A DNA stretch of 64,000 bases from Eledone cirrhosa (taxonomy: Eukaryota). Shown here one piece after another: positions 36,001 through 63,600 of the stretch (positions are counted from its first letter, which is position 1; each line of letters begins with the position of its first letter). The position numbers were made by a program, and so were the translations under genes. The notes beneath the pieces were generated by a model that was not told the origin of the DNA, did not search any database, and was given only the letters and a program-made list of their open reading frames with translations. The stretch is from positions 33,356,001-33,420,000 of the forward strand of contig OZ024740.1 in the NCBI GenBank assembly GCA_964016885.1, written 5' to 3'.

Positions 36001-36537
36001 CTAGATAGAAAGTAAACATCTATATATTTTAGATAGAAAGTGACCATCTATATATTTTAGATAGAAAATGACCATCTATATATTTTAGATAGAAAGTGAC
36101 CATCTATATATTTTAGATAGAAAGTGACCATCTATATATATATTCTAGATAGAAAGTGACCATCTATATATTCTAGACAGAAAGTGTTCATCTATATATT
36201 CTAGATAGAAAGTGTTCATCTATATATTCTAGATAGAAAGTGACCATCTATATATATATTCTAGATAGAAAGTGACCATCTATATATTCTAGATAGAAAG
36301 TGACCATCTATATATTTTAGATAGAAAGTGACCCTCTATATATTTTAGATAGAAAGTGACCATCTATATATATATTCTAGATAGAAAGTGACCATCTATA
36401 TATTCTAGATAGAAAGTGTTCATCTATATATTTTAGATAAAAAATGACCATCTATATATTTTAAATAGAAAGTGACCATCTATATATTTTAGATAGAAAG
36501 TATTCATATATATATTCTTGATAGAAAGTGTTTATCT
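1..36537. repeat. 28-bp AT-rich tandem satellite, consensus CTAGATAGAAAGTG(AC/TT)CATCTATATATT, ~1,300 copies, runs off the window start
   Basis: Period read directly: CTAGATAG at 13 and 41; AAAGTG at 3001, 3029 and 3057. Two main variants, GTGACC and GTGTTC. The array ends at ~36,537. Confidence 0.98.
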
Positions 36538-37072: not shown

Positions 37073-40000
37073 CTGAAGAACAGAAAAAAGTAAAATATTA
37101 TTAAAAAACGTAATACTTATTTTTGGTAGTAATTTAGATTTAATATTTTATACTGGTAATAGTTTTTCATTCACTCACATTATTAAAGTCGGTAAAGGCA
37201 ATAGACGAGCTGTAAAAATGTATACATTGTGTTATAAGAAAAATTAAGAGGTACTTCATAATACTCAGGTGTGTATTAATGATGTTTTGCTTTTAATTCT
37301 TTCTTCACCTCAGCACAAAAACAAAATTCTAGAGAATGTGTATCCAGAACTTGTATTATCTGAATAATTTGGGTGTTTCTGACAAATAACACAGAGGACA
37401 TGCAAAGGCTGAGGTAAGCATGCTTCGATGGATGAACAATGTTCATGTGTGAGAATGACAAAGCATGGATGAACTGAGAGAAACTGGGTGTAAGAGGAAA
37501 TAAATGTAGTGTACAGGAGAGGAGACTATGATGGTATGAACATGTGATGCGCATGGATGTTGAACGCAGGGTGAAGAAGTGTCTAGTAATTCCAGTGGAA
37601 GGAAGCCACAGTAGAGGAAGACTAACCAAGACCTGGTGAATGAAATCCCAAAGGAAAGGGGCTCTAAATACAGAGAAATATTTTTTAAGAAATATTTTTT
37701 AAACAAAAAAAGGGTTAATGTTGGTTTACGCAGTCTTACATGTGAAATGAAAACGGTTTAGTTGAATACAATGAAAGTGGATATAAAATAGAAAATTAAA
37801 CACAAAGAAATATTTACAGTAAAGTAATGGTGGTTTATTATTTCTAACCAATTACCGTATATACTCGAATATAGACCAAAGAATATGTGACCAAAATTTG
37901 ATGGTAAAATCAGAGGTTGGCTTATATACACCATTTAAACAATATATTGATTAGCTGCCTCAGTTCATAGGTGGGTTTGGATTTTTATTTATTTTTCAGA
38001 CATAAAATAAGGATGTTGGCTTATATTCAAGTATATACAGTAAATGTAGTTTCATAAATTACAACATACTCTCCATCCAGAACCACAAATTGTTGATTAC
38101 ATTAATATAAAACATGGATAAGTTTGGTATTTTGTATTCAGTCCAACCTGTCAATTGGTCATTTTTGTGCCATGATAAAGAGCACCCAGTCTACATTGTA
38201 ATATGGTTGGCATTAAGAAAGTCATCCAGCCATAGAAACCAAGTCAGAAACAGTTCTGTATGAGTAAGATATGGTCACTTGACCTGACTTGTTACACAAT
38301 GGGACAATTCCTCTAACCCATACAAGCATGGAAAACAGGCGCTAAACAATGATGATAATAAAATTAATACAATAGTTGGAGCCAGTTGTAAAATTGTAGT
38401 AGAATAAATAATTTGTAGGAAAAGATAATTATTTTAAAATAGTTAATTAATTTGAGTCCTAAAACAGAATGTCATTAGTATTTCAATATTGTCACATATG
38501 CACCTCCCAACATAGACTGATAATTAGCGACCTCATAGTCAGGACGAGACGTACTCGACAACAGAAGAGGACTATCTTCAGGAGAAAAATATGGAAGCTA
38601 AAGGACCCCACAACCAGTAATAAATTTAAAAGCATATTACTTGATGCTTTCGACAGTAAGGAAGAGCAATTAGAGTAATACAATATAGAGGAACAGTGAG
38701 AATTCCTGAAAGCAAACCTGCTGATGGCGGCAGATGAAGTCTGTGGCTGGAGCAGGCCTATAGGCAGGAGGAGAGTAACGTGGTGGTGGAACAGTAAGGT
38801 GGAGGAGTCAATTAAGGCCAAAAAGCAGGCTTGGAAAGTATGGCAGGATGGGGGAAGTAGAGAAGACTATCAAGTGGCCAGGAGGGAAGCTAGGAGACAA
38901 GTGTACTTCGCAAGAAGGGAAGCAGAGGAAAGAAAGTTCAAGCATGTTCTACAACGCGAGGGCCAAAAACGTGAGGTGTTCAGGATTGCTAGGCAATGTG
39001 TCAAGGAAAACCATGATATTGTCGGGGAGAAGTGTGTCTTTAATGATGATGGTGTACTTGCCATCACTGATGCTGATAAGAAGGTAGCTTGGAAGTGTCA
39101 CTACGAAAGGCTACTAAATGAGGAGAATAAATGGGAGAAAGACAGTCTCCCCCCCCATCGATCCAATAGAGGAACCAGCAGTGTTAATCGAAGGTAGTAT
39201 AATAAGTAAGGCAATCAAAGATATGAAGACGGGTAAGGCGGCTGGGCCATTGGAAATAGTTGCTGAAATACTGAAAGCTTCTGGAACGGTGGGACACACC
39301 ATGGTCACCCGGATAGTAAACCAAGTCATACAGAATGGGGTTGTTCCGAAGGACTGGCGTAGCAGCATCATCATTAACTGCTACAAGGGTAAAGGAGATG
39401 CTCTAGATAGGGGTAACTATAGAGGCATTAAATTAATCGACCAGGTCATGAAGGTTACAGAAAAAGTAATAGCGCAACTAATCAGAGAGCGAATTGATCT
39501 AGATGAAATGCAGTTCGGGTTTGTGTCATTATCTGGTGGGCTCTTAGAAAACTAGGTGTTGATGAATGGCTTGTGAGAGCTATACAAGCCATGTATAAAG
39601 AAACAGTCAGCAAGGTTATAATTAACAATGAATATAGTGAAGAGTTTAGCGTAAAAGTTGGTGTTCATCAGGGCTCCATTCTTAGCCCCCTACTATTTAT
39701 TATTGCCCTTCAGGCTATAACAGTGGAGTTCAAGACCGGCTGCCCATGGGAACTCTTATACGCAGATGATCTAATGCTCATAGCTGAATCAATGGCCGAA
39801 CTAGAGAAGAAATTCCAAACATGGAAGCATGGCCTAGAATCAAAAGGCCTTAAAATTAACCTGTCTAAGACTAAAGTTCTAGTTTGTAGGAAGGAAAATA
39901 GGATACCGGTCCCATCCGGGAAATGGCCATGCTCAGTGTGTAGGAAAGGAGTAGGTAGAAACTCCATTTTATGTCCCAAATGCAAAGTATGGGTGCATAA

Positions 40001-43000
40001 AAGATGTAGTGGGATCACAGGTAAGCTAACTAAGAACATAGATTTTATATGTGGCCGGTGCTCTTGTGCAATAAGTAGCAGCAAGTGCCCACAGAATACT
40101 AGCTCATTCCATTGCACAGATGGTTCTATAGAAATAGTGGACAGCTTCCTTTACCTGGGTGACAAAATCAGCAGTGGGGGAGGGTGCTCTGAAAGTACAG
40201 TAGCTAGAGTCAGAACTGGATGGAAAAAGTTCAGAGAGTTTGTACCACTATTAGCCGCTAAAGGGTTCTCTCTAAAAATGAAAGGCAGGCTGTATGATGC
40301 CTGCATACGAACAGCAATGTTGCATGGCAGTGAGACCTGGGCATTGTGTGCAGAGGATATACGCAGACTAGAGAGGAACGAAGCTTGCATGCTCCGCTGG
40401 ATGTGTAATAGTAATATACGTGAACGGCAAAGCATAAATGAACTAAGGGAAAAATTAGAAATAAGAGGGATCAGATGTTGTTTACTCGAGAGAAGACTAC
40501 GTTAGTATGATCACGTGATGCGCATGAAAGACGACAGCTGTTTAAAAAAGTGCAGGGCAATAAAAATAGACGGTAGCCACGGAGTAGGCAGACCCAGAAA
40601 AACCTGGGACGACTTGATAAATTCCGACCTCACACACTTACACCTCTCCAAGACAATGTCACTGGACCGAGATCTTTGGCGCTACACAGTAATACAGAAG
40701 ACCCGCCTTACCTAAGTACAAAGTGAAACCTACTACAGTCAGTAGGCACCTCTAACAAAAATACACCCTCGTCCCACTACCCCCACCCCATCCACACCAC
40801 CCCTTTCAATGTAAAGTTATGTTGGTACCACAACATCCAGTCCAAAACAAATGAGGTCGTGTAGGTGTCACAACAAAAAAAACACACAGTCCACGCTGTA
40901 ATGTGGCCGTGTAGGTAACACGGTAAAAACCTCCCAGTCCACACTGTAAACGTGGTTGGTGTTAGGAAGGGCATCCAGCCGTAGAAAACCCACCAGACAG
41001 TCCTATGCGAGCAAGACAACCACTCTTGCTCAAGTGGAAAAACTCCCGTCCAAACCCATGCAAGTGTGGAATATTGACGTTAAACGATGATGATGATGAT
41101 GATGATATCATTAAAGAGTAGTAATAGTATTTATACTTACCGAAAATCACCAGATGTTTTCCGTTGGAAGGCTCCTAAGGTATTTGGGACATTTTCACTA
41201 ACTGTTATAATCTCAAACCCCACAGCATATTGCCTGAATAATTTAAATATATTTGCATAATATCTTTGGATTGATGTGTTAGAAAAATAATGAATAAGAA
41301 TTTTAAAAGAAAATACCTGTGCATTTGGTGTAAGATGTAAAGGTTTATCAAATGTTAAGTATAATGAACAAAACAATAATAAATTGCTTGTTTGATTTCT
41401 TAAGGTATTTAAATAATTAGAAAATATACCTTAAATTTTATTTAGTATTTAGTATATGCTGAAAAACTAAATGTTCGGACATAAAATAGTTTTCCTTGCA
41501 TTAAGATTCCTATTCTAATAGCCAAACACAAACCTCAAATCAACAACAGACAAGAACAAAACACAAAGTGGATAACAAAAACAGACAGACTACCACACTT
41601 CTTTCCACTTCAACAATAGATATAAGCAGAACATGGCTTACAACACATACCATTTGATCCATTCATCATTTCCAGTGTTGAAAAAAACCCACCAGTTTCA
41701 GATTAAAAAATGCTAGCTTAAAAACAACACAAGAGATCCTACTCTAAATTAGTTTCCTCATCTCATCTTTTGATAATGGGATTTTACCCTGAAATATTAA
41801 GGGTTAATAAGCACCACCAAGGTAACATCCACACAACTTTATCATTATTTTTAACATTTTATGTCTTATTTACATTGCTGTAATTTCTACACGCCATTTC
41901 TACAACCTATCTAATTTTAATGAGAATCGACTTATTGTAAATACCTACTTCAATTTCATCAATTCTAATTTTATTTGATAAATATTGGTACTTACTTAGG
42001 TCCCATCAATTCAATCAAAATATGATTTTCAGCTGACTGATTGTCGATATTTATCTGATAAATAGGATTGTTTTTATGTGTTTGTGGATAGTTAGCACAA
42101 CCACCAGCAGAGATTCCCTTCCAGTGGCCTGTGATCTGGCAAACAAACAAAAAATACAACCTCAATGTTAACTCATGAAAAAGTCACTTTTTAACAATTG
42201 TCTTTCCACAACTTCACAAAGTTGAAATAATGGTTATCATATTTACTGTAGTAATGTGAAGCAGCATGGTGATGATAATGGTTTCTAATTTAGGCACAAG
42301 GACAACAAATTTTGAGAAGGAATGTTGATTAAATCGACCACGTAAGGATGAAAGCAAAGCTAACCTCAGCAGGATTTGAAATCAAAACGTAAAGGGACGT
42401 AACTCTATGCCACGAAGCATAGTGTCCGACGTTCTATTGATGCTGCCAATCCATGGACAAAAACCAACACAATGGGGTTTACATTGAGTAAAGGGAAAGA
42501 AGCCAGTATAACAATAACAGTAATTGTAATAAATATTCATGATAATACAAAACAATAACAAATATCAACTAGGAAGAGTTCCCCAATAAAAAGGGACTGC
42601 ATTTTAAGGTAATTCCAGGGAAAACTCCACACAAAATCCCAGATTACTCTGTTATGTCAAGGGCATTGGAAGTGGCCTCTCCTGGCATATTTCCTCCTGT
42701 TTAGAGAAGCATAGTCTGTGTCGGCCTATTCAGTCCCATTTATCTCGCCACACTCACCTATTTTTCATAAAATACACTATAAGGTAGCACCTCCCTCTCT
42801 ACTCACACATTCTTCTTCAAGTTCCACTTGAAGATGTTGATGAGTGTTTGGCCAGAGAGGAAGATACATGTTCTCAAACATTTTAAATATGCCTATCACA
42901 GGTTCTGTTACCATAGCTAGCAGGCAGAAGAAAACTTGCTATGCCTCCCTTCGAAAGAAATGTGGTGGTTCAATTTTCACTATAGATCTGGCTGATAGTT

Positions 43001-46000
43001 GCATGTCTTACACATAATAGCAGTTTTTGACACATGCCCTAAAGTCTGCAATGGAAAGACACTGGGTGGATTCATCATCCTGTGTACATATCAGACTGAT
43101 TTAGTTGTTAGCAATTATGTGCCTGTAGAGTTTGTTATACCTCAGACAGGTTTAGCTGTTAGTAATTCTGTCTGTAGAGTTTGTTACACCTCGGACAGGT
43201 TTAGTTGTTAGTAATTCTGTTACAAACTGGTAGTACCCCTCTGTAGCACTGCTATGCCAAGTATTTTTGGAAATTTTTTGAAAGTCTTCCAGAAGATCTT
43301 GCTCGGACTGTTTTTATCAATGTCCAGAGCTTCTCTCAGGCCATCATCACTCATATTTTCTACTAACAAGCAATGTTTTTCATCTGCTGATTGCATTCTC
43401 CAATTGTAAAAAGTGTTGTCAATGTCTTGCAGTACTTTTAATAATAATAATAATAATTTCAACTAACAATAACTATTTTTTAGATATATACTTCCTTGGC
43501 TATGAGTCCACCTACAACAGCAATGATGATGACAACAATGACAACAACAAGTGACTTGTCAGATGACTAAATACCCTGGTGCATTATCCATCTGCACTGC
43601 GTGACAGAGCTATAATAATGATTTCTTCTATAGGCATAAGGCCAGCAATTATCCCAGTGTATTACTGGTACTTTATTTTATCGACCTCGTAAGGATGAAA
43701 GGCAATGTTAACCTCAGCGGGATTTGAACTCAGACCATAAAGGGCCGTAATTCTTTGCTGCAAAGCAAGGCGTCAGACTCTCTACGATACTGCCAATCCA
43801 CCACCATATCATCATCATCATTTTACGTCCGCTTTTCCCTGCTTGCAAGGGTGGGACGGGAACTGATTCTGGCTTGATTTCTACAGCTGGATGCCCTTCC
43901 TAATACCAACCTCATTTACAGTGAGTGATGGGTGCTTTTTTGCCGTGGCACCTCCACGACCACTTTGCAGTGGAATGATATGGACCCCAGTCCCTATCAT
44001 CTCATTTCTACAGCTGAGTAAACTGGAGCAACGTGAAATAAAGTGTCTTGCTCAAGGAAACAACAGATCACCCGGTCTGAGAATTGAACTCACAACCTTT
44101 CGATTGCAAGGCCAATGCTCTAACCACTAAGCCATGTGCCTCCAACAGCGCTATAATAATAGCAACGATTTCTAATTTAGGAATGATGCTTGCAATGTAT
44201 AGGGAAAGCAAAGTCGATTATATTGACCCTATTTTTTAACTAGTACTTTATTTTATCAACAACAGAATAGCAAAATTGACCTTGGTGGAATTTGAAACCA
44301 GAATGTACAGAGTTGGAATAATTACTACAAGGTATGTTGTCCAATACTTTAATGATACTGCGAAGGTCAGAAATTTGGTGGAGAAATTAATTAAACAATT
44401 ACATTTTTATTCTGGATATGGGCTAATTAGATGTTATTTTTAACCTATATGTTATTTTTAACCTAATGGAGGCGCATGGCTTAGTGGTTAGAGCATTGGC
44501 CTTGCAATCGAAAGGTTGTGAGTTCAATTCTCAGACCGGGTGATCTGTTGTTTCCTTGAGCAAGACACTTTATTTCACATTGCTCCAGTTTACTCAGCTG
44601 TAGAAATGAGATGATAGGGACTGGGGTCTATATCATTCCACTGCAAAGTGGTCGTGGAGGTGCCACGGCAAAAAAAAGCACCCAGCACTCACTGTAAATG
44701 AGGTTGGTGTTAGGAAGGGCATCCAGCTGTAGAAATCAAGCCAGAATCAGTTCCCGTCCCACCCTTGCAAGCAGGGAAAAAGCGGACGTAAAATGAAATG
44801 ATGAAAATGATGAGTAGACTGTCTAGATAATTTGTTGGCCTTTAATTAAGATATGGGCTAATTAGATGTTATTTTTAACCGACTAAAAGCTGTCTAGATA
44901 ATGTGTTGGCCTTTATTTAAGATGTGAGCTAGTTAGATGTTATTTCTAACCTACAGTAGACTGTCTAGATCAGAGGCATGCTACAGGTGGCCTGCGGGCC
45001 ACAATCCGGCCCGCCAGACCAGTCAGAGTGGCTCGCGATGACCATTTTCCTAGTGCTGCAAGAACCAAAGAACAGGTAGTAAACTCATAATTAATTTACT
45101 GTTGAAAACTAGTTCATTTACTCTGTTAATGATCATAGAAAAGGCCATAAATATCACAATTATCTTTTTCTTACATCCTGTAATCAACAGGACTGATGAT
45201 GGTGGTAATGTCAATGGTGTCAGTGGTGTGAATTGTTTCAGTTTTGTGGAATAGTTTTTTTCACATTGAAGTGTTGGTCTTTAATGTAAGTGTCTGGGAA
45301 ATATATACACATACACCAGGTCCAAACATAAAGGAGCCAAACTTCCCCTGTCACTGCCTCCGTCCCTCCCGCTCTCCCCATCTCTCATTATTATGAGCAA
45401 ATGGGGGTCCATGTGCTGGTCGGCCTGTGGCCCCAGCAGACTGATTGTTAATGGTAATCTCTGATCACAAAAGCAAGTAATTAACTATTAATATTGCACC
45501 AGAGCATAGAATAAATATATTTTTGTAGTAAAAACTAGCAGAATGACCCGGCTTTGCTCGGGATTTGCTCTAGGGTTCTTATATATTTGATATATATTTA
45601 TCCTTATCGAGCCTCGTGAAATAAATACGTTTGTTTATATTTTGTTATAGTGTATGCAAAAATATCTGTACACGAATATATAATTATATATATATTAAAA
45701 TAACAGATTAAAGTTTAAGTAAAGAATCGCTGCTTTCACCCTTAATGGGATTTTCTGAAACTAAAAAAATCAATCTGTAAACGCAGAAGTAAATATTTCG
45801 ATAAACGTTACACACTATATATATATATATATACACACACTATATATACATATATACAACACACACACAGATAGCGAAGTCAATGTCGTAATGCAGACAG
45901 CCAGGCATACAGACAGATATTATAAGGGTGCAACGTTATATCTATGTATCTATCTAAAAAGAGAAAGACTAAGAATTATAGAGAGAGATCGCTAAATCGC

Positions 46001-47970
46001 CTAATGCGGTCCCTAGGGCATTGAAAATTTGAAATTCTTTTTTGCTCAAAACACTCACAGGACCATAAGTATTACATTTGTAAAGTTTGAAAACAATCGG
46101 TTGGGTGGTTCTCGAGTTTTAGTGGTCGGACAGACAGACAGACATTCCCTGTTTTAGATATATAGATAATAATATAATTTACAATGGAAGCAATCCCAAT
46201 ATCTTGTAAAGATATTCTTTCCTAAGTAAATGGAACTTTAATCTCCGACTTTCCTTCCCAAAGGGTTTTCTTTTATGAATCATCCTGTTTTTTTTGTTTT
46301 TGCTGTACCATTTCCAATGAAATTGGTTCAAGGTATTACAGTATTGAAATATTTCAAATTTTAAAAAATAACACAGCAAAACTTACCTTTTTGCCATATT
46401 CTTTTTTGTAGGGGTCAACAATGCCTGTGAGACTGAACTCAGAATTAGCATAAACGCGTAGAGTGTAATAAATAGAATTATTCTTTTCATACTGTGAAAC
46501 AATCAAAGTGTATGAATGAGTACCAGGTTCCTCCTCCAGTTTACAAAGGTAGTGAGGGCTGTTGATTCTTACTCCATCAATATAAGGTGGGGGGTCATCT
46601 GAAAATAAGAAAATAATTAGAATAAAAACTATAGAAAGTGAAGAATGATAAAATTAAGGAAAAAGAGAAAAAGGAGTTTGGACTGGAGTGAACAGAAATT
46701 TCATTAGATATTTTGTATGTTTGCTTTGTAATTGTATATGTGTGTAGGTATCATGACAAAAAGCACCCAGCCCACACTGTAAATGTAGTTGGTGTTAGGA
46801 AAGGCATTCAGCCATAGAAACTTGAAGAAATGGGTGAGAGAGATAGAGCCAGAGAAATAGAATCAGATGGCTAGATCATGTATTTAGAAAGGATGAAATA
46901 GAATGGGTGAGAGGAATAGAGTCAGTAAAGAATGTTGTAAAGAGAAAAAGAATGAGATGGTTGGGTCATTTGTTGAGGAAGGATAAACATAACCTGGTGA
47001 GAAGAATAGAGTGATGTTGTGAAAAGAAATGGAATGAAATGGTTGGATCATGTGTTGAAGAAAGATGATGAATGTGGAAGGAAGCAGAGGACAGGGGAAA
47101 CCAAGAAAGATATAGCCAAAGGTGATGAAGGAGGAAATGAAAGCTAAGTGGCTGGTGAGGTGGGGATTCAGACATTAGGGAAAAGTGGAGAAACTTGTCA
47201 TGAAGCCTCATTAGGCTAACTCCTGCTTTAGCATGGAACATGGCTTAAAACACTTGCTGTTTCTTTTAGTTTCAGAAACAGAAGTTGTAATACACATAAG
47301 CCCCTGTCCCACCCTTGTAAGCAGGGAAAAAGCGGACGTAAAATGAAATGATAAGAGATATTATACTCAAAGAAATACAGTATATGACCAGTTAACAGAT
47401 TATATGGTTATTGTAAATTGTGTTGAATGTGTGTGTATGTATTTATATATATGCGACTACAATAACAGCAACAGCACCATTGTCAGCAGCAGCAGCAGTG
47501 AAATGAAGAACAGCAACAACAGCGGCGGCGGCGGCAGCAGCAACAACAACTGCCACCACCACCACCATCACCATACTGACACCATCCACCACCTTCACCA
47601 CTACTACCACTGCCACCATCAATAGCACCATCCATCACCATACCATCAGTCGCCACCACCGTCACCATCAGACACCATCCACCACCTCCACCACTACCAC
47701 CACCATCACCATGACTGACACCATCCACCACCATCACTGACACCATCCACCACCACCACCATTACCAGCTTAAAGCAAACAATTATTATTATTATTATAT
47801 AAAAACTGAACTGGACTGGGAAAAGTCAACAGTTGACATGATTTTGATTTTGTATCAGTACTGTTGGTAATATATATATATATGTGTGTGAGTGGTGTGT
47901 GTGTTTGTATGCATAAGTGTTGATGTGTGAGTGGCGTGTGTGTTTGTAGTTTGTATGCATGAGTGTTGGT

Positions 47971-48008
<38 letters not shown>

Positions 48009-51000
48009 CGTGTTGTGTCAATAAGTGTTTTTTTTTTGTTTTTTTTATGACCATGCTGTAAAATGGAGGGGTAGAGAGGGCCCTTGAGTCTAGTAAGATA
48101 TCCTCTCTAGTGCTGGTGGCACAAATAAAAGCACCCAGTCCATGCTGTAAAGTGGCGCTGGTGTTAGGAAGGGCATCCAACCAGTGTATCAATGCCAAAA
48201 CGCTTAGCAGCACAGCAACAAGTAAGATAGGAACAACAACAAAATATGAAGATGTCGCATCTCAGAGTTGCAACACTTAATGTTGGCACTCTCAGAGGTA
48301 GATCTGCCGAAATAGCGGAGATGCTGGAGAGAAGGCATGTGGATGTGTGCTGCGTGCAAGAGGTGAGATGGAGAGGTGCTTCTGCGAGACTAGCTATAAG
48401 CTTTTCTGGGTAGGTAAGGATGATGGGTTAGGGGGGAGTAGGCATTTTCCTGGCTGAGAAATGGATCAATAAGACAATAGAGGTAGTTCGAGTTAGTAAT
48501 CGAATAATTAAGCTTAGATTAGTTGTAGGCAGGAGACTACTGACAATCATCTCGGCCTATGCTTCCCAAGCAGGCCTAGGCAAAGATGAGAAAGACTGCT
48601 TTTACAAACAACCGCAATGACAGAGGACGGAGACATCGTTATGCTAGCAGGGGACTTCAATGGTCATGTTGGACAGCTCCAGGATGGTTACACTAGGGTA
48701 CATGGTGGGCACGGTTATGTCTCAAGAAATGAAGAAGGAGTGAGACTTCTTGAATTTTGTGATGCAAGTACACTGACTATTTGCAACACAAACTTCCAGA
48801 AACTTGCCAATCACCTAATAACCTACAAATTTGGCGAGCACATAAGCCAGATTGACTTCTTACTAGTTAGGCAGTGGGACAGGCAGATAGTATCTAATAC
48901 CAAGGCATACCCTGGGGAAGAATGTACCCCACAGCATAGGTTAGTCGTTAGTGATATCTCAGTAAGCAAAAGATGGAATGAGACATATAGGAAGGTGTGG
49001 AAAAGAAAGGTCTGGAAGCTAAAAGACCTTTCACTAAAATACAAATTTAGGAAAGCCCTTCAAGATGTATATGATGAAAAAGAAGACGATTTAGAGACAT
49101 AGATAATAACTGGACATAGATAATAACTGGAATTTCTTACGTGACAACTTACTGCAGGCTACTGATGAAACTTGTGGCTGGAGCAGAGCTCCAACCAGAC
49201 AGAGAGTGACCTGGTGGTGGAACAGCACAGTAGATAAGGCCATTAGAGACAAAAGACTAGTAGGGAAGAATATACAGCCATTAAGAGAGAAGCTAGACGT
49301 CAGATGTACTTAGCACGCAGGGAGGCTGAGAGTAGGCGGTTTGCCAATGTTCTGCGACGGGAAGATCAGAGGCGTGCAGTGTCCCACATTGCAAGGCAGT
49401 GTGTCAATGCAAATCAGGATGTTGTTGGAGATAAATGTGTCCGGAATGATGCTGGTGTATCATGAATGATCAGAAAAAGGAGGCCTGGAAATGTCATTAT
49501 GAGAGACTGATGAATGTGGAGAACGAATGGGAGAGAGAGAAATTACCCTTAGTAGATCCGACAGAGGGACCAGCTATTGAGGTTGACGAATATAGGGTCC
49601 AAGAGGCAATTAAGGAAATGAAAAATGGTAAGGCTGCTGGACCATCGGGAATAGTTGCTGAGATGCTGAAGGCATCAGGGAACGTAGGTACTAAACTGGT
49701 TGCACGCATCATCAATCAGGCTATATATGGTGGTGTCATACCCAAAGACTGGTGCAGCAGTATTCAAATAAATTGCTACAAAGGTAAAGGGGATGCTCTG
49801 GAGAGGAGCAATTATAGGGGTATAAAACTGATAGATCAGGTTATGAAAGTGGCAGAAAGGATATTAGCAAAACTAATTAGAGAAAGGTTCAAACCAGATG
49901 AGATGCAGTTTGGTTTTGTGCCTGGGAAGAGTACAACAGATGCCCTCTTCTTGGTGAGACAATTGCAAGAGAGGTTCTTAGAGAAAAATAAGCCACTATA
50001 CTTAGCCTTTGTTGACCTAGAGAAGGCCTTTGATAGGGTACCCCGATCTGTCATCTGGTGGTCCCTAAGGAAACTAGGTGTTGAGGAATGGCTTGTGAGG
50101 ACAGTGCAAACTTTGTACAGAGGTACTCTCAGTAAAGTCAGGGTAGGAATGGAGTTTAGTGAGGAATTCCAGAAACAAGTAGGAGTACATCAAGGTTCGG
50201 TCCTCAGCTCGCTCTTATTCATTATAGTCCTCCAAGCCATAACAGAGGAGTTTAAGAGTGGCTGTCCATGGGAACTTCTCTATGCTGATGATCTGGTTCT
50301 TATAGCAGAATCAGTAGAGGAGCTAGAGAATAAATTCTGGCTATGGAAACAGCAGTTGGAAGCAAGAGGACTGAGAGTGAACCTAGCTAAGACAAAAGTG
50401 TTGATGAGTAGAAAAGAGGACAAAACTCTGATTCCGTCAGGGAAATGGCCATGTTCGATATGCAGAAAAGGAACTGGCATAAATTCTATAAAATGCACAC
50501 AATGCAGATTCTGGGTACACAAGAGATGTAGCGGGATAGCAGGCAAACTAACAGGTAGAGAGAAATATGTATGCAGTAGATGTACAGGGAAATTAGACAG
50601 TAGAAGTCGCATTGATAGACACATTTTTCAAATGCAGGAGGGTGCTATAGAAGTGGTGGAGAGCTTCCGCTACCTAGATCAGATTAGCATGGGGGGGGGG
50701 GGGGGTTCCGAGGCCATAGTATCTAGAATAAGGACAGGTTGGAAGAAATTTAGGGGGCTGTTTACTCTGCTGACGAAGAAGGGTTTCTCCCTGCGTACGA
50801 AAGGCCAGTTATATGATGCCTGTGTGAGGAGCACAATGCTGCATGGTAGTGAGACTTGAGCAGCAACTGCAGAGGATATGCGACGGCTGGAGAGAAATGT
50901 GGCAAGCATGCTCCGTTGGATGTGCAATGTCAATGTGCGTGAATGACCCAGCATGGATGTGTTGAGAGAGAAACTGTGTCTGAGAGGGATAGAATGTAGT

Positions 51001-54000
51001 GTGCGAGAGAGGAGACTGTGGTGGTATGGACATGTGATGCGCATGGAGGATGACCGATGGGTGAAGAAGTGCCAGGAAATGCCAGTTGAAGGAAGACATG
51101 GTAGAGGTAGACCACGAAAAACATGGGCGGAGGTGGTGAGAAGAGACCTCAGATCGCTGAAGCACCACACGTTGGCGATGACGAAGGACGACCGTGACAA
51201 GTGGAGAGATGCTGTGCTGAATAAGACCCGTCCCACCCTTGTAAGCAGGGAAGAGCGGACATAAAATGACGATGATGATGATGTAATATATTCAAGAGAT
51301 ATTATACTCAAAGGAATACAGTTTATGACCATTTAACAGATTTACAATCTGAATTTATTAGTTAATAATAATGATAATGAAATTATTGTGTACAGTACTC
51401 AGGTGCACTACAATCCATCAAAGGTGCATGTATAGTACATAGAATAATGTACAAATGTCAGGAAAATGAACAGTGTACGAGTCATGAAATACATGTGTGC
51501 ATGTTAATATCGAACATTTGCAATGTCTTTATTCTAGCATTAAAAAAAAACTGTCTCTATTAAACAAACAATTGTTAGTGTATAGATGAAGATCAAAGAA
51601 GTGTGTGGGTGAGGAGAGGACCATGAAAATGAAGTGGATACAAAAGAGAAAATACTACCGTATATACTCAAATATAAGCCAATCCCACTATTTTAAGTCT
51701 GAGAAATGGGCAAAAATCCAAACCTTGTTTATAAGCCAAGGCAACTAATCAACACATTGTTTAGATAGCAAATATAAGCCAAACCCACCATTTTACCATC
51801 GATTTTTTGGTCACATTCCTTCGCGTATATTCAGGTATATACAGTATATGTTTACTATCTTAATAATGAAATCATTAATAATTTTAGAAATCTGGTCATA
51901 TATTCCTTTCATAAATATACAGTAACTCACAGATAATACTTACATGGGTAGAATACTTTTTTACCATCACTCTTGTACACTAATAGGGTAATGAATTCAC
52001 GGTTATTTGCAAAGTCATCCTATTAAGAAAAGAAAAACATCTTTTAATAAAAGATGATGTAACATGGCTGCAAAGATATGATAATTGTTAACAGAGTTCC
52101 CTGGTGTTAAGATGTTCAACTACAGACAAGATTATAAATTCAAATAATGTTACAGTTGTAACATTTTTTAGTAAGGATTAAATAATAATAATGGAAATTA
52201 TTGTGTACAGTGCTCAGGTGCACTCATCAAAGGTGCATGTATAGTACATAGAATAATATACAAATGTCAAGAAAGTGAACAGTGTATGAGTCATGATATA
52301 CACACAGACGTACACACACACATGCGTGCTTGTGTATGAAGGGGGAATATCAGGTGTAGTGTTGGCGAATATCAGGAAGCATGGAGGTTTTGAAGGATGC
52401 AGTGTCCCAACAGCTAACAACTGATGCAGGTAGTTTGTTCCATGCTTCAGCAACTCAGAGCTTGTAAAAACGATTCCAAAAATCATGAGAGCTGTGCTGT
52501 TTTCCGATTTTGTAAGCATATCCACAGGGTTGAATAAAGAAACACCTGTTTATTGTAGTAACTGAACAAACCTAACAGCTGTTGTAATTATTTAACATTG
52601 ATAAGTGTCAGATAATTAACAAAGAGGTTAACCCTTCTAAGTCAGGTTGCAGAACACATGAATGAGTTGAGAGAAAAACTGGGTATAAGAGGAAACAATT
52701 GTAGTGAGCAAGAGAGAAGATTGTGCTGGTATGGATGAGGATTGTTGGGTGAAGAAATACTAATGTTTCCTAGTGAAAGGAAGCTGCAGTAGAGGAAGAC
52801 CAATGAAGAACTGGGCAGAAACAGTAAGAGCAGATCTTACATAGGAGACAACGAAGAAACGCAGTAGGTGAGGGGAAGCTCTACTAGAAAGACTCGTACT
52901 TACAAGCACGGAAAAATGAACATCAAAAGATGATGATGATGATGTTGATTTGTCCTTGTTCAATGTAATAATGAGTCTCTGATTAAGTGAAATATATTGA
53001 ACCAAATTTTTATTGTCTCCTTCAATAGTTGATGTAATATATCTTCTTTTATATCGACTTCACCAATGTGTACCTGAGGCACTCCTATCTCTTCTTCTAC
53101 ACTATATACTTCTTCACTACCACCCCCAACAACAACAACAACAACAACAAACACTAACCACTATATCTAATCTGTCCTCCACAGAATGTTAAGCGTCTGG
53201 AATTCAATTCCTGCAGACTTTGTTGTTAGACTTACAGATGTTCAAGATGTACTGATGAACAGAATCGTTCTTACGACCTAGCAATGAACTGACCAACAAA
53301 TTGGACCAAGGAAACAATGCTTCTAATGGTCATTCCATTGCTGATACTATTTAACAGTCACAACTCCTGGAAGAAGGAAGCAGAATTTGAACTCACAATA
53401 CATATGGCCAGATCAGATACCCCAAAGTATCCTGCTTAACTCTTAAACAATTTCACCAATCCACATGAACCCTGGACTAGTATTTTATCTATAGAGTGGA
53501 ACAAATACTAAAGTAATTAATCCAATGCTCTAATGACTTTGTCAATTTTCCACCTAAGTGTTCAGCCCATATCAAATGAGCTGCTGGTTTGAAAGAACCA
53601 TTTTTTATTGTAGATCTAAATGAATCTGTTTTGCTATAACTTGTGATAGGTGAAAAGAAGTACAAGAGCTGAAAAATTCTCAGTAAATGTCCAGAAGATA
53701 AAAAAATGGAAAAAAAACATTATAATAATTGTTTCTCCTTCTGGCACAAGATCACCAATTACTCCAGTGCATTACTGGTGCTGTATTTTATCGACCCCGT
53801 AAGGATGAAAGGCAAAGTTAACCTTGGCAGGATTTGAACTCAGAGGTGAACTTTAATAATTTTGCTAAGTAAGAATGACATGATTTTGGATGTTGGCTAC
53901 ACATTGTGAAGGAATGGAATGTAAACTAAATTGGTGACAAAGCCATTGAAGACAGCTTTAGTAAGGGAAAGATAAAATATGATATATTAATTTGGATGTA

Positions 54001-54624: not shown

Positions 54625-57600
54625 AATTAACCAGCAACACAGTAGGTTCCAACTGACCACATAGATTGGTCATATTTAATTAACCAGTAATACAGTAGAT
54701 ACCAACTGACCACTGAAACTGTTTAGATTTAGTTAACCAGTAATACAGTAAGTTCTAACTGACCACTTAAATTGTTGAGATTTAGTTAACCAGTAATACA
54801 GTAGGTTCTAACTGACCACTGAAACTGTTGAGATTTAGTTAACCAGTAATACAGTAGGTTCTAACTGACCACTGAAACTGTTGAGATTTAGTTAACCAGT
54901 AATACAGTAAGTTCTAACTGACCACTTAAATTGTTGAGATTTAGTTAACCAGTAATACAGTAGGTTCTAACTGACCACTGAAACTGTTGAGATTTAGTTA
55001 ACCAGTAATACAGTAAGTTCTAACTGACCACTTAAATTGTTGAGATTTAGTTAACCAGTAATACAGTAGGTTCTAACTGACCACTGAAACTGTTGAGATT
55101 TAGTTAACCAGTAATACAGTAGGTTCTAACTGACCACTGAAACTGTTGAGATTTAGTTAACCAGTAATACAGTAGGTTCTAACTGACCACTGAAACTGTT
55201 GAGATTTAGTTAACCAGTAATACAGTAGGTTCTAACTGACCACTTAAATTGTTGAGATTTAGTTAACCAGTAATACAGTAGGTTCTAACTAACCACTTAA
55301 ATTGTTGAGATTTAGTTAACCAGTAATACACTAGATACCAACTGACCACTGAAACTGTTGAGATTTAGTTAACCAGTAATACAGTAGGTTCTAACTGACC
55401 ACTGAAACTGTTGAGATTTAGTTAACCAGTAATACAGTAGATACCAACTGACCACTGAAACTGTTGAGATTTAGTTAAACCAGTAATACAGTAGGTTCTA
55501 ACTGACCACTGAAACTGTTGAGATTTAGTTAACCGGTAATACAGTAGATACCAACTGACCACTTAAATTGTTGAGATTTAGTTAACCAGTAATACAGTAG
55601 GTTCTAACTGACCACTGAAACTGTTGAGATTTAGTTAACCAGTAATACAGTAGGTTCTAACTGACCACTGAAACTGTTGAGATTTAGTTAACCGGTAATA
55701 CAGTAGGTTCTAACTGACCACTGAAACTGTTGAGATTTAGTTAACCAGTAATACAGTAGGTTCTAACTGACCACTGAAACTGTTGAGATTTAGTTAACCA
55801 GTAATACAGTAGGTTCTAACTGACCACTGAAACTTGAGATTTAGTTAACCAGTAATACAGTAGGTTCTAACTGACCACTGAAACTGTTGAGATTTAGTTA
55901 ACCAGTAATACAGTAGGTTCTAACTGACCACTGAAACTGTTGAGATTTAGTTAACCAGTAATACAGTAGGTTCTAACTGACCACTGAAACTGTTGAGATT
56001 TAGTTAACCAGTAATACAGTAGGTTCTAACTGACCACTGAAACTGTTGAGATTTAGTTAACCAGTAATACAGTAGGTTCTAACTGACCACTTAAATTGTT
56101 GAGATTTAGTTAACCAGTAATACAGTAAGTTCTAACTGACCACTGAAACTGTTGAGATTTAGTTAACCAGTAATAGTAGGTTCTAACTGACCACTGAAAC
56201 TGTTGAGATTTAGTTAACCGGTAATACAGTAGGTTCTAACTGACCACTGAAACTGTTGAGATTTAGTTAACCAGTAATACAGTAGGTTCTAACTGACCAC
56301 TGAAACTGTTGAGATTTAGTTAACCAGTAATATAGTAGGTTCTAACTGACCACTGAAACTGTTGAGATTTAGTTAACCGGTAATACAGTAGGTTCTAACT
56401 GACCACTGAAACTGTTGAGATTTAGTTAACCGGTAATACAGTAGGTTCTAACTGACCACTGAAACTGTTGAGATTTAGTTAACCAGTAATAGTAGGTTCT
56501 AACTGACCACTGAAACTGTTGAGATTTAGTTAACCGGTAATACAGTAGGTTCTAACTGACCACTGAAACTGTTGAGATTTAGTTAACCAGTAATACAGTA
56601 GGTTCTAACTGACCACTGAAACTGTTGAGATTTAGTTAACCACTAATACAGTAGGTTCTAACTGACCACTGAAACTGTTGAGAATTAGTTAACCAGTAAT
56701 ACAGTAGGTTCTAACTGACCACTGAAACTGTTGAGATTTAGTTAACCAGTAATACAGTAAGTTCTAACTGACCACTGAAACTGTTGAGATTTAGTTAACC
56801 AGTAATAGTAGGTTCTAACTGACCACTGAAACTGTTGAGATTTAGTTAACCAGTAATACAGTAGGTTCTAACTGACCACTGAAACTGTTGAGAATTAGTT
56901 AACCAGTAATACAGTAAGTTCTAACTGACCACTGAAACTGTTGAGATTTAGTTAACCAGTAATACAGTAGGTTCTAACTGACCACTGAAACTTGAGATTT
57001 AGTTAACCGGTAATACAGTAGGTTCTAACTGACCACTGAAACTGTTGAGATTTAGTTAACCAGTAATAGTAGGTTCTGACCACTGAAACTGTTGAGATTT
57101 AGTTAACCGGTAATACAGTAGGTTCTAACTGACCACTGAAACTGTTGAGATTTAGTTAACCGGTAATACAGTAGGTTCTAACTGACCACTGAAACTGTTG
57201 AGATTTAGTTAACCAGTAATAGTAGGTTCTAACTGACCACTGAAACTGTTGAGATTTAGTTAACCGGTAATACAGTAGGTTCTAACTGACCACTGAAACT
57301 GTTGAGATTTAGTTAACCAGTAATACAGTAGATACCAACTGATCACTGAAACTGTTGAGATTTAGTTAACCAGTAATACAGTAGGTTCTAACTGACCACT
57401 GAAACTGTTGAGATTTAGTTAACCAGTAATACAGTAGGTTCTAACTGACCACTGAAACTTGAGATTTTGTTAACCAGTAATACAGTAGATAGCAACTGAC
57501 CACTGAAACTGTTGAGATTTAGTTAAACCAGTAATACAGTAGGCTCTAACTGACCACTGAAACTGTTGAGATTTAGTTAACCGGTAATACAGTAGATACC

Positions 57601-60600
57601 AACTGACCACTTAAATTGTTGAGATTTAGTTAACCAGTAATACAGTAGGTTCTAACTGACCACTGAAACTGTTGAGATTTAGTTAACCAGTAATACAGTA
57701 GGTTCTAACTGACCACTGAAACTGTTGAGATTTAGTTAACCGGTAATACAGTAGGTTCTAACTGACCACTGAAACTGTTGAGATTTAGTTAACCGGTAAT
57801 ACAGTAGGTTCTAACTGACCACTTAAATTGTTGAGATTTAGTTAACCAGTAATACAGTAGGTTCTAACAGACCACTGAAACTGTTGAGATTTAGTTAACC
57901 AGTAATACAGTAGGTTCTAACAGACCACTGAAACTGTTGAGATTTAGTTAACCAGTAATACAGTAGGTTCTAACTGACCACTGAAACTGTTGAGATTTAG
58001 TTAACCGGTAATACAGTAGGTTCTAACTGACCACTGAAACTTGAGATTTAGTTAACCAGTAATACAGTAGGTTCTAACTGACCACTGAAACTGTTCAGAT
58101 TTAGTTAACCAGTAATACAGTAGGTTCTAACTGACCACTGAAACTGTTGAGATTTAGTTAACCGGTAATACAGTAGATACCAACTGACCACTTAAATTGT
58201 TGAGATTTAGTTAACCAGTAATACAGTAGGTTCTAACAGACCACTGAAACTGTTGAGATTTAGTTAACCAGTAATACAGTAGGTTCTAACTGACCACTGA
58301 AACTGTTGAGATTTAGTTAACCAGTAATACAGTAGGTTCTAACTAACCACTGAAACTGTTGAGATTTAGTTAACCGGTAATACAGTAGATACCAACTGAC
58401 CACTTAAATTGTTGAGATTTAGTTAACCAGTAATACAGTAGATACCAACTGACCACTGAAACTGTTGGGATTTAGTTAACCAGTAATACAGTAGATACCA
58501 ACTGACCACTGAAACTGTTGAGATTTAGTTAACCAGTAATACAGTAGGTTCTAACTGACCACTGAAACTGTTGAGATTTAGTTAACCGGTAATACAGTAG
58601 ATACCAACTGACCACTTAAACTGTTGAGATTTAGTTAACCAGTAATACAGTAGGTTCTAACTGACCACTGAAACTGTTGAGATTTAGTTAACCAGTAATA
58701 CAGTAGGTTCTAACTGACCACTGAAACTGTTGAGATTTAGTTAAACCAGTAATACAGTAGGTTCTAACTGACCACTGAAACTGTTGAGATTTAGTTAACC
58801 AGTAATACAGTAGGTTCTAACTGACCACTTAAACTGTTGAGATTTAGTTAACCAGTAATACAGTAGGTTCTAACTGACCACTGAAACTGTTGAGATTTAG
58901 TTAACCAGTAATACAGTAGGTTCTAACTGACCACTGAAACTGTTGAGATTTAGTTAAACCAGTAATACAGTAGGTTCTAACTGACCACTGAAACTGTTGA
59001 GATTTAGTTAACCAGTAATACAGTAGGTTCTAACTGACCACTGAAACTGTTGAGATTTAGTTAACCAGTAATACAGTAGGTTCTAACTGACCACTGAAAC
59101 TGTTGAGATTTAGTTAACCAGTAATACAGTAGGTTCTAACTGACCACTGAAACTGTTGAGATTTAGTTAACCAGTAATACAGTAGGTTCTAACTGACCAC
59201 TGAAACTGTTGAGATTTAGTTAACCAATAATACAGTAGGTTCTAACTGACAACTGAAACTGTTGAGATTTAGTTAACCAGTAATACAGTAGGTTCTAACT
59301 GACCACTGAAACTGTTGAGATTTAGTTAACCAATAATACAGTAGGTTCTAACTGACAACTGAAACTGTTGAGATTTAGTTAACCAATAATACAGTAGGTT
59401 CTAACTGACCACTGAAACTGTTGAGATTTAGTTAAACCAGTAATACAGTAGGTTCTAACTGACCACTGAAACTGTTGAGATTTAGTTAACCAGTAATACA
59501 GTAGGTTCTAACTGACCACTGAAACTGTTGAGATTTAGTTAACCAATAATACAGTAGGTTCTAACTGACAACTGAAACTGTTGAGATTTAGTTAACCAGT
59601 AATACAGTAGGTTCTAACTGACCACTGAAACTGTTGAGATTTAGTTAAACCAGTAATACAGTAGGTTCTAACTGACCACTGAAACTGTTGAGATTTAGTT
59701 AACCAGTAATACAGTAGGTTCTAACTGACCACTGAAACTGTTGAGATTTAGTTAACCAGTAATACAGTAGGTTCTAACTGACCACTGAAACTGTTGAGAT
59801 TTAGTTAACCAGTAATACAGTAGGTTCTAACTGACCACTGAAACTGTTGAGATTTAGTTAACCAGTAATACAGTAGGTTCTAACTGACCACTGAAACTGT
59901 TGAGATTTAGTTAACCAGTAATACAGTAAGTTCTGACCACTGAAACTGTTGAGATTTAGTTAACCAGTAATACAGTAGGTTCTAACTGACCACTGAAACT
60001 GTTGAGATTTAGTTAACCAGTAATACAGTAGGTTCTAACTGACCACTGAAACTGTTGAGATTTAGTTAACCAGTAATACAGTAGGTTCTAACTGACCACT
60101 GAAACTGTTGAGATTTAGTTAACCAGTAATACAGTAGGTTCTAACTGACCACTGAAACTTGAGATTTAGTTAACCAGTAATACAGTAGGTTCTAACTGAC
60201 CACTGAAACTGTTGAGATTTAGTTAAACCAGTAATACAGTAGGTTCTAACTGACCACTGAAACTGTTGAGATTTAGTTAACCGGTAATACAGTAAATACC
60301 AACTGACCACTTAAATTGTTGAGATTTAGTTAACCAGTAATACAGTAGGTTCTAACTGACCACTGAAACTGTTGAGATTTAGTTAACCAGTAATACAGTA
60401 GGTTCTAACTGACCACTGAAACTGTTGAGATTTAGTTAACCAGTAATACAGTAGGTTCTAACTGACCACTGAAACTGTTGAGATTTAGTTAACCAGTAAT
60501 ACAGTAAGTTCTAACTGACCACTGAAACTGTTGAGATTTAGTTAACCAGTAATACAGTAGGTTCCAACTGACCACTGAAACTGTTGAGATTTAGTTAAAC

Positions 60601-63600
60601 CAGTAATACAGTAGGTTCTAACTGACGACTGAAACTGTTGAGATTTAGTTAACCAGTAATACAGTAGGTTCTAACTGACCACTGAAACTGTTGAGATTTA
60701 GTTAACCAGTAATACAGTAGGTTCTAACTGACCACTGAAACTGTTGAGATTTAGTTAACCAGTAATACAGTAGGTTCTAACTGACCACTGAAACTGTTGA
60801 GATTTAGTTAACCAGTAATACAGTAGGTTCTAACTGACCACTGAAACTGTTGAGATTTAGTTAACCAGTAATACAGTAGGTTCCAACTGACCACTGAAAC
60901 TGTTGAGATTTAGTTAAACCAGTAATACAGTAGGTTCTAACTGACCACTGAAACTGTTGAGATTTAGTTAACCGGTAATACAGTAGATACCAACTGACCA
61001 CTTAAATTGTTGAGATTTAGTTAACCAGTAATAGAGTAGGTTCTAACTGACCACTGAAACTGTTGAGATTTAGTTAACCAGTAATACAGTAGGTTCTAAC
61101 TGACCACTGAAACTGTTGAGATTTAGTTAACCAGTAATACAGTAGGTTCTAACTGACCACTGAAACTGTTGAGATTTAGTTAACCAGTAATACAGTAGGT
61201 TCTAACTGACCACTGAAACTGTTGAGATTTAGTTAACCAGTAATACAGTAGGTTCTAACTGACCACTGAAACTGTTGAGATTTAGTTAACCAGTAATACA
61301 GTAGGTTCTGACCACTGAAACTGTTGAGATTTAGTTAACCAGTAATACAGTAGGTTCTAACTGACCACTGAAACTGTTGAGATTTAGTTAACCAGTAATA
61401 CAGTAGGTTCTAACTGACCACTGAAACTGTTGAGATTTAGTTAACCGGTAATACAGTAGGTTCTAACTGACCACTGAAACTTGAGATTTAGTTAACCAGT
61501 AATACAGTAGGTTCTGACCACTGAAACTGTTGAGATTTAGTTAACCAGTAATACAGTAGGTTCTAACTGACCACTGAAACTTGAGATTTAGTTAACCAGT
61601 AATACAGTAGGTTCTAACTGACCACTGAAACTGTTGAGATTTAGTTAACCAGTAATACAGTAGGTTCTAACTGACCACTGAAACTGTTGAGATTTAGTTA
61701 ACCAGTAATACAGTAGGTTCTAACTGACCACTGAAACTGTTGAGATTTAGTTAACCAGTAATACAGTAGGTTCTAACTGACCACTGAAACTGTTGAGATT
61801 TAGTTAACCAATAATACAGTAGGTTCTAACTGACCACTGAAACTGTTGAGATTTAGTTAACCAGTAATACAGTAGATACCAACTGACCACTGAAACTGTT
61901 GAGATTTAGTTAACCAGTAATACAGTAGGTTCTAACTGACCACTGAAACTGTTGAGATTTAGTTAACCAGTAATACACTAGATACCAACTGACCACTGAA
62001 ACTGTTGAGATTTAGTTAACCAGTAATACAGTAGGTTCTAACTGACCACTGAAACTGTTGAGATTTAGTTAACCAGTAATACAGTAGATACCAACTGACC
62101 ACTGAAACTGTTGAGATTTAGTTAACCAGTAATACAGTAGGTTCTAACTGACCACTGAAACTGTTGAGATTTAGTTAACCAGTAATACAGTAGGTTCTAA
62201 CTGACCACTGAAACTTGAGATTTAGTTAACCAGTAATACAGTAGATACCAACTGACCACTGAAACTGTTGAGATTTAGTTAACCAGTAATACAGTAGATA
62301 CCAACTGACCACTGAAACTGTTGAGATTTAGTTAACCAGTAATACACTAGATACCAACTGACCACTGAAACTGTTGAGATTTAGTTAACCAGTAATACAG
62401 TAGGTTCTAACTGACCACTGAAACTGTTGAGATTTAGTTAACCAGTAATACAGTAGATACCAACTGACCACTGAAACTGTTGATTTAGTTAACCAGTAAT
62501 ACAGTAGGTTCTAACTGACCACTGAAACTGTTGAGATTTAGTTAACCAGTAATACAGTAGGTTCTAACTGACCACTGAAACTGTTGAGATTTAGTTAACC
62601 GGTAATACAGTAGGTTCTAACTGACCACTGAAACTGTTGAGATTTAGTTAACCAGTAATACAGTAGGTTCTAACTGACCACTGAAACTTGAGATTTAGTT
62701 AACCAGTAATACAGTAGGTTCTAACTGACCACTGAAACTGTTGAGATTTAGTTAACCAGTAATACAGTAGGTTCTAACTGACCACTGAAACTTGAGATTT
62801 AGTTAACCAGTAATACAGTAGGTTCTAACTGACCACTGAAACTGTTGAGATTTAGTTAACCAGTAATACAGTAGGTTCTAACTGACCACTGAAACTGTTG
62901 AGATTTAGTTAAACCAGTAATACAGTAGGTTCTAACTGACCACTGAAACTGTTGAGATTTAGTTAACCGGTAATACAGTAGGTTCTAACTGACCACTGAA
63001 ACTGTTGAGATTTAGTTAAACCAGTAATACAGTAGGTTCTAACTGACCACTGAAACTGTTGAGATTTAGTTAACCAGTAATACAGTAGGTTCTAACTGAC
63101 CACTGAAACTGTTGAGATTTAGTTAACCAGTAATACAGTAGGTTCTAACTGACCACTGAAACTTGAGATTTAGTTAACCAGTAATACAGTAGGTTCTAAC
63201 TGACCACTGAAACTGTTGAGATTTAGTTAACCAGTAATACAGTAGGTTCTAACTGACCACTGAAACTGTTGAGATTTAGTTAACCAGTAATACAGTAGGT
63301 TCCAACTGACCACTGAAACTGTTGAGATTTAGTTAAACCAGTAATACAGTAGGTTCTAACTGACCACTGAAACTGTTGAGATTTAGTTAACCGGTAATAC
63401 AGTAGATACCAACTGACCACTTAAATTGTTGAGATTTAGTTAACCAGTAATACAGTAGGTTCTAACTGACCACTGAAACTGTTGAGATTTAGTTAACCAG
63501 TAATACAGTAGGTTCTAACTGACCACTGAAACTTGAGATTTAGTTAACCAGTAATACAGTAGGTTCTAACTGACCACTGAAACTGTTGAGATTTAGTTAA

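Follow-up and report, generated by a model that had tools for sequence, protein, structure and literature searches.

A predicted Pygopus-like PHD finger between reverse transcriptase motifs 6 and 7 of RTE-type LINEs in Eledone cirrhosa

The 64,000-nucleotide stretch analyzed here (the window; Eledone cirrhosa, NCBI GenBank assembly GCA_964016885.1, contig OZ024740.1, positions 33,356,001 to 33,420,000 of the forward strand, with positions below counted from its first nucleotide) is a satellite-rich part of a 3.0-Gb genome, in which two LINE (long interspersed nuclear element) copies lie between two satellite arrays (Table 1). The two copies represent two families, referred to as families A and B, and both are of the RTE type by the build of their open reading frame (ORF), their 3' tail and their truncation. 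Both carry, inside the reverse transcriptase (RT), an insert that sequence and fold predictions identify as a Pygopus-like PHD finger with two predicted zinc ions.

Two RTE-type LINEs with an inserted PHD finger

A preliminary description of the window, made from its sequence, had proposed that an exact Cys4-His-Cys3 (C4HC3) PHD pattern lies in frame within an RTE-type RT. This proposal was confirmed, including its coordinates. In both elements, the pattern is in frame with the catalytic YADD, the motif-6 stretch and the F.YL(G) motif, and a six-frame pattern search of the 64 kb gave no third match. The pattern was absent from all 20,000 shuffles of the 469-aa ORF of family A. Pfam PHD (PF00628) scored 25.5 and 27.7 bits within the ORFs, i.e., above the cut-off of 24 bits, and 31.5 and 34.1 bits on the isolated domains. 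The YADD and the first Cys of the finger are 57 residues apart in most loci.

AlphaFold2 modeling, which the preliminary description had proposed together with the Pfam search, predicted a PHD fold; the mean predicted local distance difference test value (pLDDT) of the 469-aa frame was 88.4, and the finger had values of 81-95 within this frame and of 72-89 (core) when modeled alone. The structures best matching the isolated finger model were nearly all PHD fingers, with fly Pygo at the top (VIA Z 5.0; 53 residues aligned; root mean square deviation [rmsd] 3.6), and Foldseek also placed PHD structures first (E 0.008-0.07); these scores are modest, as is usual for a 50-residue domain. The best profile match of the finger was the Pygopus PHD (E 3.6e-7), the best sequence match of the family B finger in the PDB was the Pygo2 PHD (E 3.1e-5), and Pfam 38 labels some homologues PHD_Pygo. 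We also considered a C1 domain, because Pfam C1_2 scored above its cut-off (32.2 bits) on the isolated family A domain; this match covers only the first 31 residues, and we rejected it because the ligand order and the fold matches favor a PHD finger.

Both window copies contain stops and frameshifts and are dead. The family A copy shares its 5' region with another genomic copy, shares its 3' end and tail with 28 of 28 copies picked by DNA likeness, and is 91-93% identical to other copies. A natural copy of this family with a long ORF matched the endonuclease region of the window copy in pieces in three frames (tblastn), and Pfam Exo_endo_phos was detected in that natural copy. The family B copy is 96% identical, in two pieces, to a longer natural copy. 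The preliminary description had taken the second LINE for a diverged copy with the same insertion; the equivalent insertion with all eight ligands is indeed present, but families A and B share only ~68% nucleotide identity and are separate families that group as sisters in an RT tree (99% SH-aLRT).

Each family has at least 150 close copies with 93-97% protein identity. First-look counts of 89,934 and 93,303 candidates were not used as copy numbers, since tblastn of nine arbitrary 10-kb genome stretches found no copy. Natural copies have a single ORF for an APE endonuclease and the RT, with open frames of 930-1010 aa that end shortly past the thumb without a CCHC knuckle (Pfam), and copies of both families have a 3' microsatellite tail and variable 5' truncation. 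A small contig carries a copy that shares 161 identical nt with the window copy and has 96% identity to it across 1.3 kb.

Table 1. Coordinates of features in the window
Feature	Position	Strand	Remarks
Satellite array	3..36530		28-bp unit, ~1297 copies
Family B RTE-type LINE, 5'-truncated, dead, (GAT)n tail	38498..41106	+	Internal deletion near 39528
PHD finger, family B	39930..40061	+	C4HC3; RT position as in family A; Pfam, Pygo2 PHD match
tRNA-like repeat	44077..44134	-	Just below Rfam cut-off
tRNA-like repeat	44477..44534	+	Just below Rfam cut-off
Nearly full-length RTE-type LINE of family A, dead	47419..51283	+	5' end approximate
APE endonuclease region of single ORF, frameshifts and stops	48246..49000	+	ATG at 48246
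469-aa open frame with RT core, PHD insert, motif 7 and beginning of thumb	49450..50859	+	Translation, Pfam, model
Catalytic YADD, RT motif 5	50281..50292	+	Y278, D280, D281 invariant in homologue alignment
RT motif 6, immediately 5' of insert	50368..50403	+	Aligned to R2Bm up to residue 667-668
PHD finger module, family A	50440..50583	+	C4HC3 at 50452-50583, preceded by four conserved lead-in residues; basic, Pygopus-like
RT motif 7, primer grip, after insert and variable linker	50665..50676	+	F406, Y408 invariant in alignment
(GAT)n 3' tail, family A	51266..51283	+	Sequence; tail also in other copies
Satellite array	54627..64000		53-bp unit, at least 178 copies

Spread and conservation of the architecture

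The finger pattern was present at the equivalent position in 113 of the 120 homologues listed of the 200 found; of the seven misses, six have a finger that is damaged and the seventh was not shown. The query contained the finger, which favors finger-bearing matches. With a query restricted to the RT core, both kinds of elements were returned, with fingers in the closer matches and none in the group at 40-46% identity, and the finger was found in 0 of 120 relatives of family C, a DUF6451-type RTE family of the same genome. Of 80 loci on metagenome contigs, 68 show a clean finger and 26 contain frames of at least 950 aa; the finger served as the query in confirming these loci. The host range is based on four named matches (two Octopus species, Branchiostoma floridae and Gordionus) and on the taxa that the ESM Atlas gives for the architecture (Mollusca and Arthropoda; few records). 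The architecture is old and widespread, as judged from these homologues. The closest homologue (69%) lies on a 1.5-kb contig labeled as part of a Herbaspirillum metagenome bin; this is probably LINE DNA of an animal that was binned with bacterial sequence.

The preliminary description had allowed that the architecture might already be catalogued. This holds for automatic labels, which are widespread: annotation pairs RVT_1 with PHD on many homologues, and an ESM Atlas cluster of 262 members is named for both. However, we found no description of an RTE RT with an inserted PHD or cysteine-rich segment in the accessible literature; the architecture is catalogued automatically but has apparently been neither described nor tested in print; subscription papers, Repbase and Dfam were outside the scope, and a Repbase note on such an insert is quite possible. 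In a look-up of terms in the main texts, the PHD domain was not mentioned in PMC9115989, PMC3849965, PMC11203168, PMC13282606, PMC10294476, PMC12477816 or PMC8226300, the supplements of which may hold domain tables, and PMC8392823 mentions only PHDs of the ORF1 type. PHDs have been reported in ORF1 of CR1/L2 elements and, in some subgroups, at the start of ORF2 (PMC4120745). Like the finger described here, these are C4HC3 domains in a LINE, and for one subgroup, the Pygo PHD structure 2vpb was a best match (PMC4120745); in contrast, they lie in ORF1 or before the endonuclease of Jockey-group elements, while the finger of families A and B is embedded in the palm of the RT that a single ORF of the RTE type encodes.

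Across the 120 homologues, taken unfiltered, the eight zinc ligands are 98-100% conserved. The conservation of the first half of the finger (0.74) equals that of RT motifs 4-6 (0.73), while the flanking linkers score 0.33 and 0.27. Between families A and B, the nonsynonymous divergence (dN) is 0.26 for the finger, 0.14 for the RT core and 0.83 for the following linker, with synonymous sites saturated. These comparisons support that the finger has been kept by purifying selection in active lineages, as the preliminary description had supposed. That description had also offered relaxed constraint on the ligands across genomic copies as a refuting observation. This test proved invalid: among the 28 copies picked by likeness of their 3' DNA, ligand codons were altered as often as others (7/118 versus 288/6237) because dead copies decay neutrally. 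A within-family pN/pS analysis of copies picked by protein likeness (ligand codons altered in 1/368 and 0/304) was rejected since such copies are biased by the search score.

A quick tree of the RT core with the insert removed contained 75 rows (49 with the finger, 13 near relatives without it and 13 outgroup rows), after rows that were >80% identical or too short and one long branch had been left out. Its rows were unnamed relatives and DUF6451-type elements. A single clade of finger-bearing rows was not rejected (p-AU 0.59) and the base of the tree was unresolved; a single capture of the PHD finger is therefore allowed by the tree, and we infer one such event. The near relatives without the finger presumably go by names such as Expander or plant RTE. 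The PHD-less family C has 70-72% identity over 441 aa to Branchiostoma proteins compared to 44-47% for most other matches, and by this likeness, it is a candidate for horizontal transfer.

Position in the reverse transcriptase and binding face

The RT model aligned to the structures of R2Tg (VIA Z 31.2; 386 residues aligned; rmsd 3.4) and L1 ORF2p (VIA Z 30.2; 398 of 469 residues aligned; rmsd 3.4), and the ~70 residues left unaligned to these structures correspond to the size of the insert. The finger is located between RT motifs 6 and 7, which are 88-94 aa apart in elements with the PHD and 26-30 aa apart in those without it. The same interval holds the 6a insertion of R2. In R2Bm, 6a (residues 672-677) reads an upstream target motif, its deletion blocks nicking, and the authors termed it unique to R2 (PMC10499050); in two vertebrate R2 elements, the 6a loop is reported to be wedged into target DNA (PMC12180492). 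The PHD finger occupies the interval of the 6a loop. In R2Bm, R2Tg and PlaMe as in the RTE-type elements, the insertion is basic and separates motif 6 from motif 7 in a non-LTR (long terminal repeat) RT, and in R2 it touches upstream target DNA. The two differ in that the R2 loop is short, whereas the RTE insertion is a 44-residue two-zinc PHD finger flanked by linkers, belongs to an APE-type element that lacks site specificity, and has no sequence homology to 6a. By analogy, the RTE loop may face upstream target DNA as in R2, and R2 and the PHD-bearing RTEs may have come to use the motif 6-7 site convergently.

The preliminary description had favored a reader of histone H3 tails, and the finger could, alone or together with DNA binding, have a Pygopus-like pocket for methylated K4 and steer integration by chromatin. 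In Pygo1, an acidic face bears the K4me2 pocket, which is formed by W366, Y341, D352, V350 and A356; mutation of E360 abolishes H3 binding (PMC2726290). The best PDB matches in sequence and fold are Pygo and other H3 readers, and, in addition to the PHD_Pygo labels, the RTE finger shares with the Pygopus PHD, an H3K4me2 reader, the aromatic-Pro-Cys start, the Val, the small residue-Ile before Cys3 and the cage Trp. The equivalents of Y341, V350 (Thr in family A), A356 (small, Ser), I357 and W366 are kept. As the preliminary description had noted, the cage positions before the His and before Cys1 are aromatic: the Trp two residues before the His was present in 119 of 119 homologues, and the residue before Cys1 was W, Y, F or H in 116 of 120; Val and Ser are conserved at 97% and 96%. 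Moreover, chromodomains, MBDs and PHDs have been proposed or shown to be targeting modules of retrotransposons, with PHDs cited as possible ones (PMC6673714). Chromodomain and MBD LTR retrotransposons likewise have a captured chromatin-protein domain as a proposed integration guide, although theirs is appended to integrase-type elements while the RTE finger is embedded in a TPRT (target-primed reverse transcription) enzyme and probably reads no mark.

The acidic side of this pocket, by contrast, is gone. The equivalents of Pygo E349, D352 and E360 are absent, as is the acidic EVND loop, with the loop there shortened by two residues; loops 1 and 2 are both shorter than in Pygopus, and loop 1 is Gly-rich. 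An acidic residue was present at the D352-like position in 7 of 120 homologues and after Cys3 (the position of E360) in 0 of 119 homologues and 1 of 68 metagenome loci, whereas all 15 host-type fingers found among 30 genome loci have an acid after Cys3. The net charge of the RTE finger is strongly positive (in 112 homologues it runs from +2 to +12 with a median of +7; +7 in the 68 metagenome loci) and that of the 15 host matches has a median of -2. A charge of +7 would repel the basic H3 tail, the Thr of family A replaces the Val of the pocket, and the insertion bias described below points to a DNA repeat. We therefore consider the H3 reader unlikely. The preliminary description had remarked that the cage Met is replaced by Ser; this replacement does not decide the matter, since the nearest solved fingers are of the Pygopus type, in which Ala lines the pocket, and it is the loss of the acids that is decisive. 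A predicted complex between the finger and the N-terminal 30 residues of this genome's histone H3, computed without an alignment, scored 0.02 (mark 0.34) and was counted neither way.

The PHDs of BAZ1A and BRD1 provide a precedent for another ligand, as they have been reported to bind DNA; that of BAZ1A lacks the acidic residues, did not bind a histone array and contacts DNA through basic residues (PMC5636791). The RTE finger shares with these two the PHD fold without acidic histone-binding residues and a basic patch, but they belong to host proteins, and no close sequence match to the RTE finger was seen. Taken together, the position in the RT and the chemistry of the finger favor contact with DNA over contact with a histone tail, with RNA or with a host protein, and over a structural role.

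Two further explanations were considered. The finger could bind the RNA of the element or a host protein (such as a histone mimic or a repair factor), replacing functions of ORF1p or of a C-terminal zinc knuckle. This would fit a basic domain in a single ORF that ends soon after the thumb without a CCHC knuckle, as well as the PHDs in ORF1 of CR1/L2 with their match to Pygo; yet PHD-less RTEs manage without a finger on an equal single-ORF build, and the corresponding loop of R2 faces DNA, which makes this explanation doubtful. PHD-less RTEs, i.e., the near relatives, the DUF6451/BovB-type family C and the octopus element RTE-2_OV, likewise have a single APE-RT ORF, a microsatellite tail and 5' truncation but differ in their short motif 6-7 loop; RTE-2_OV has been described with a C2H2 finger and no PHD in the main text of PMC9115989. 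Alternatively, the finger could be mainly a structural insert that forms part of the RT fold and has no outside ligand. The fixed 57-residue spacing and conserved Gly, Pro and Asn residues suggest packing on the palm, and the AlphaFold confidence is higher in the RT context than for the finger alone. On the other hand, basic surface residues are conserved (the Lys before the Trp lead-in at 79% and the Lys after the His at 82%), and sister lineages without the finger indicate that its loss or absence is tolerated; a purely structural role is the least probable of the explanations considered here.

Insertion sites, surroundings and significance

The preliminary description had anticipated an insertion bias. 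Such a bias is present in this genome, but its targets are DNA repeats of the (TA)n kind, and it cannot be attributed to the PHD finger. In family A, the tail is followed at the 3' junction by a run of (TA)4 or longer in 15 of 28 copies picked by DNA likeness and in 27 of 44 copies picked by protein likeness (45 given), and in family B in 12 of 32 copies (37 given). Among the PHD-less families, such runs were counted in 4 of 43 family C copies (unique copies; 49 loci given) and in 2 of 21 copies of family E, a near relative with a (GAT)n tail for which 9 of 30 loci stopped short of the 3' end. Overall, the 3' share is 38-61% in the PHD-bearing and ~10% in the PHD-less families, with a background of ~6% of positions in the nine arbitrary stretches. 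The 5' truncation points also have (TA)4 or longer runs (family A, 11/19 and 22/36; family B, 7/18; family C, 1/40), which shows insertion into pre-existing TA runs. At the 3' end of the window's own family A copy, a TA run is absent. That a rebuilt DNA-sensor finger, in the RT loop that serves R2 for target recognition, directs insertions to (TA)n microsatellites because these are safe havens is quite unlikely in our estimation; if it were true, non-LTR RTs in general would have, in the 6a loop, a targeting socket whose contents can be swapped.

We consider the chances about even that the Pygopus-like finger is a basic nucleic acid-binding module that contacts target DNA during TPRT. An RTE sub-lineage would have captured a Pygopus-like PHD between RT motifs 6 and 7 in a single event; the finger lacks acidic histone-binding residues, is strongly basic and is kept by selection. 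Its loop would face upstream target DNA beside the nick, as 6a does in R2, with DNA as the ligand, and the finger would raise integration efficiency or bias site choice.

Several observations weigh against such contact with target DNA. PHD-less RTE relatives transpose well, and therefore the finger is dispensable for the chemistry. The conserved hydrophobic pocket is as compatible with a peptide pocket that has been retained as with a structural role, and it is the main point in favor of a histone reader. Charge by itself is indecisive because one host PHD match also has +6, and the basic residues could bind the RNA of the element instead of DNA. As to the TA bias, families A and B are sisters and provide a single evolutionary contrast; the PHD-bearing and PHD-less families also differ in their endonuclease, family E is much older (~20% diverged), and PHD-less RTEs have been reported to cut at TA (PMC13295347). 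Finally, at metagenome loci from other hosts, a TA run followed 0 of 28 tail-like matches (~17 true tails by eye), in short-read assemblies, which break at TA runs.

Other repeats accompany the two LINEs. The 3' end of family A with ~50 nt of flank is duplicated on either side of the long element (47295-47401 and 51220-51342), which may represent an extended duplication of the target adjoining a SINE-like (short interspersed nuclear element) partner, and a similar short family A 3' end is found at ~44784. A short motif common to the 5' region of family A (~48160-48190) and the long 3' untranslated region of family B (~40950-40985) looks like a shared SINE-like segment. The two tRNA-like repeats are near-identical and inverted, and are probably tRNA-derived SINEs; an Rfam search of the window gave nothing beyond these two matches. 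Another repeat of this genome encodes a 46-residue basic PHD after a proline-rich stretch rather than within an RT, and its many near-identical copies are clustered on one contig (19.3-23.7 Mb), with some elsewhere. Most of the 150 scored PHD matches in the genome resemble retroelement fingers and not host genes, a point that matters for genome annotation.

The finger bears on how APE-type LINEs choose sites beyond their endonuclease. A folded domain is tolerated in the RT palm at the place of the target-DNA loop of R2, and the sister elements without a PHD provide natural controls. Were the finger to read histones, a mark reader would for the first time be seen within the RT of a LINE. That the motif 6-7 loop accepts an insert of 60 residues bears on the engineering of retrotransposon-based gene insertion.
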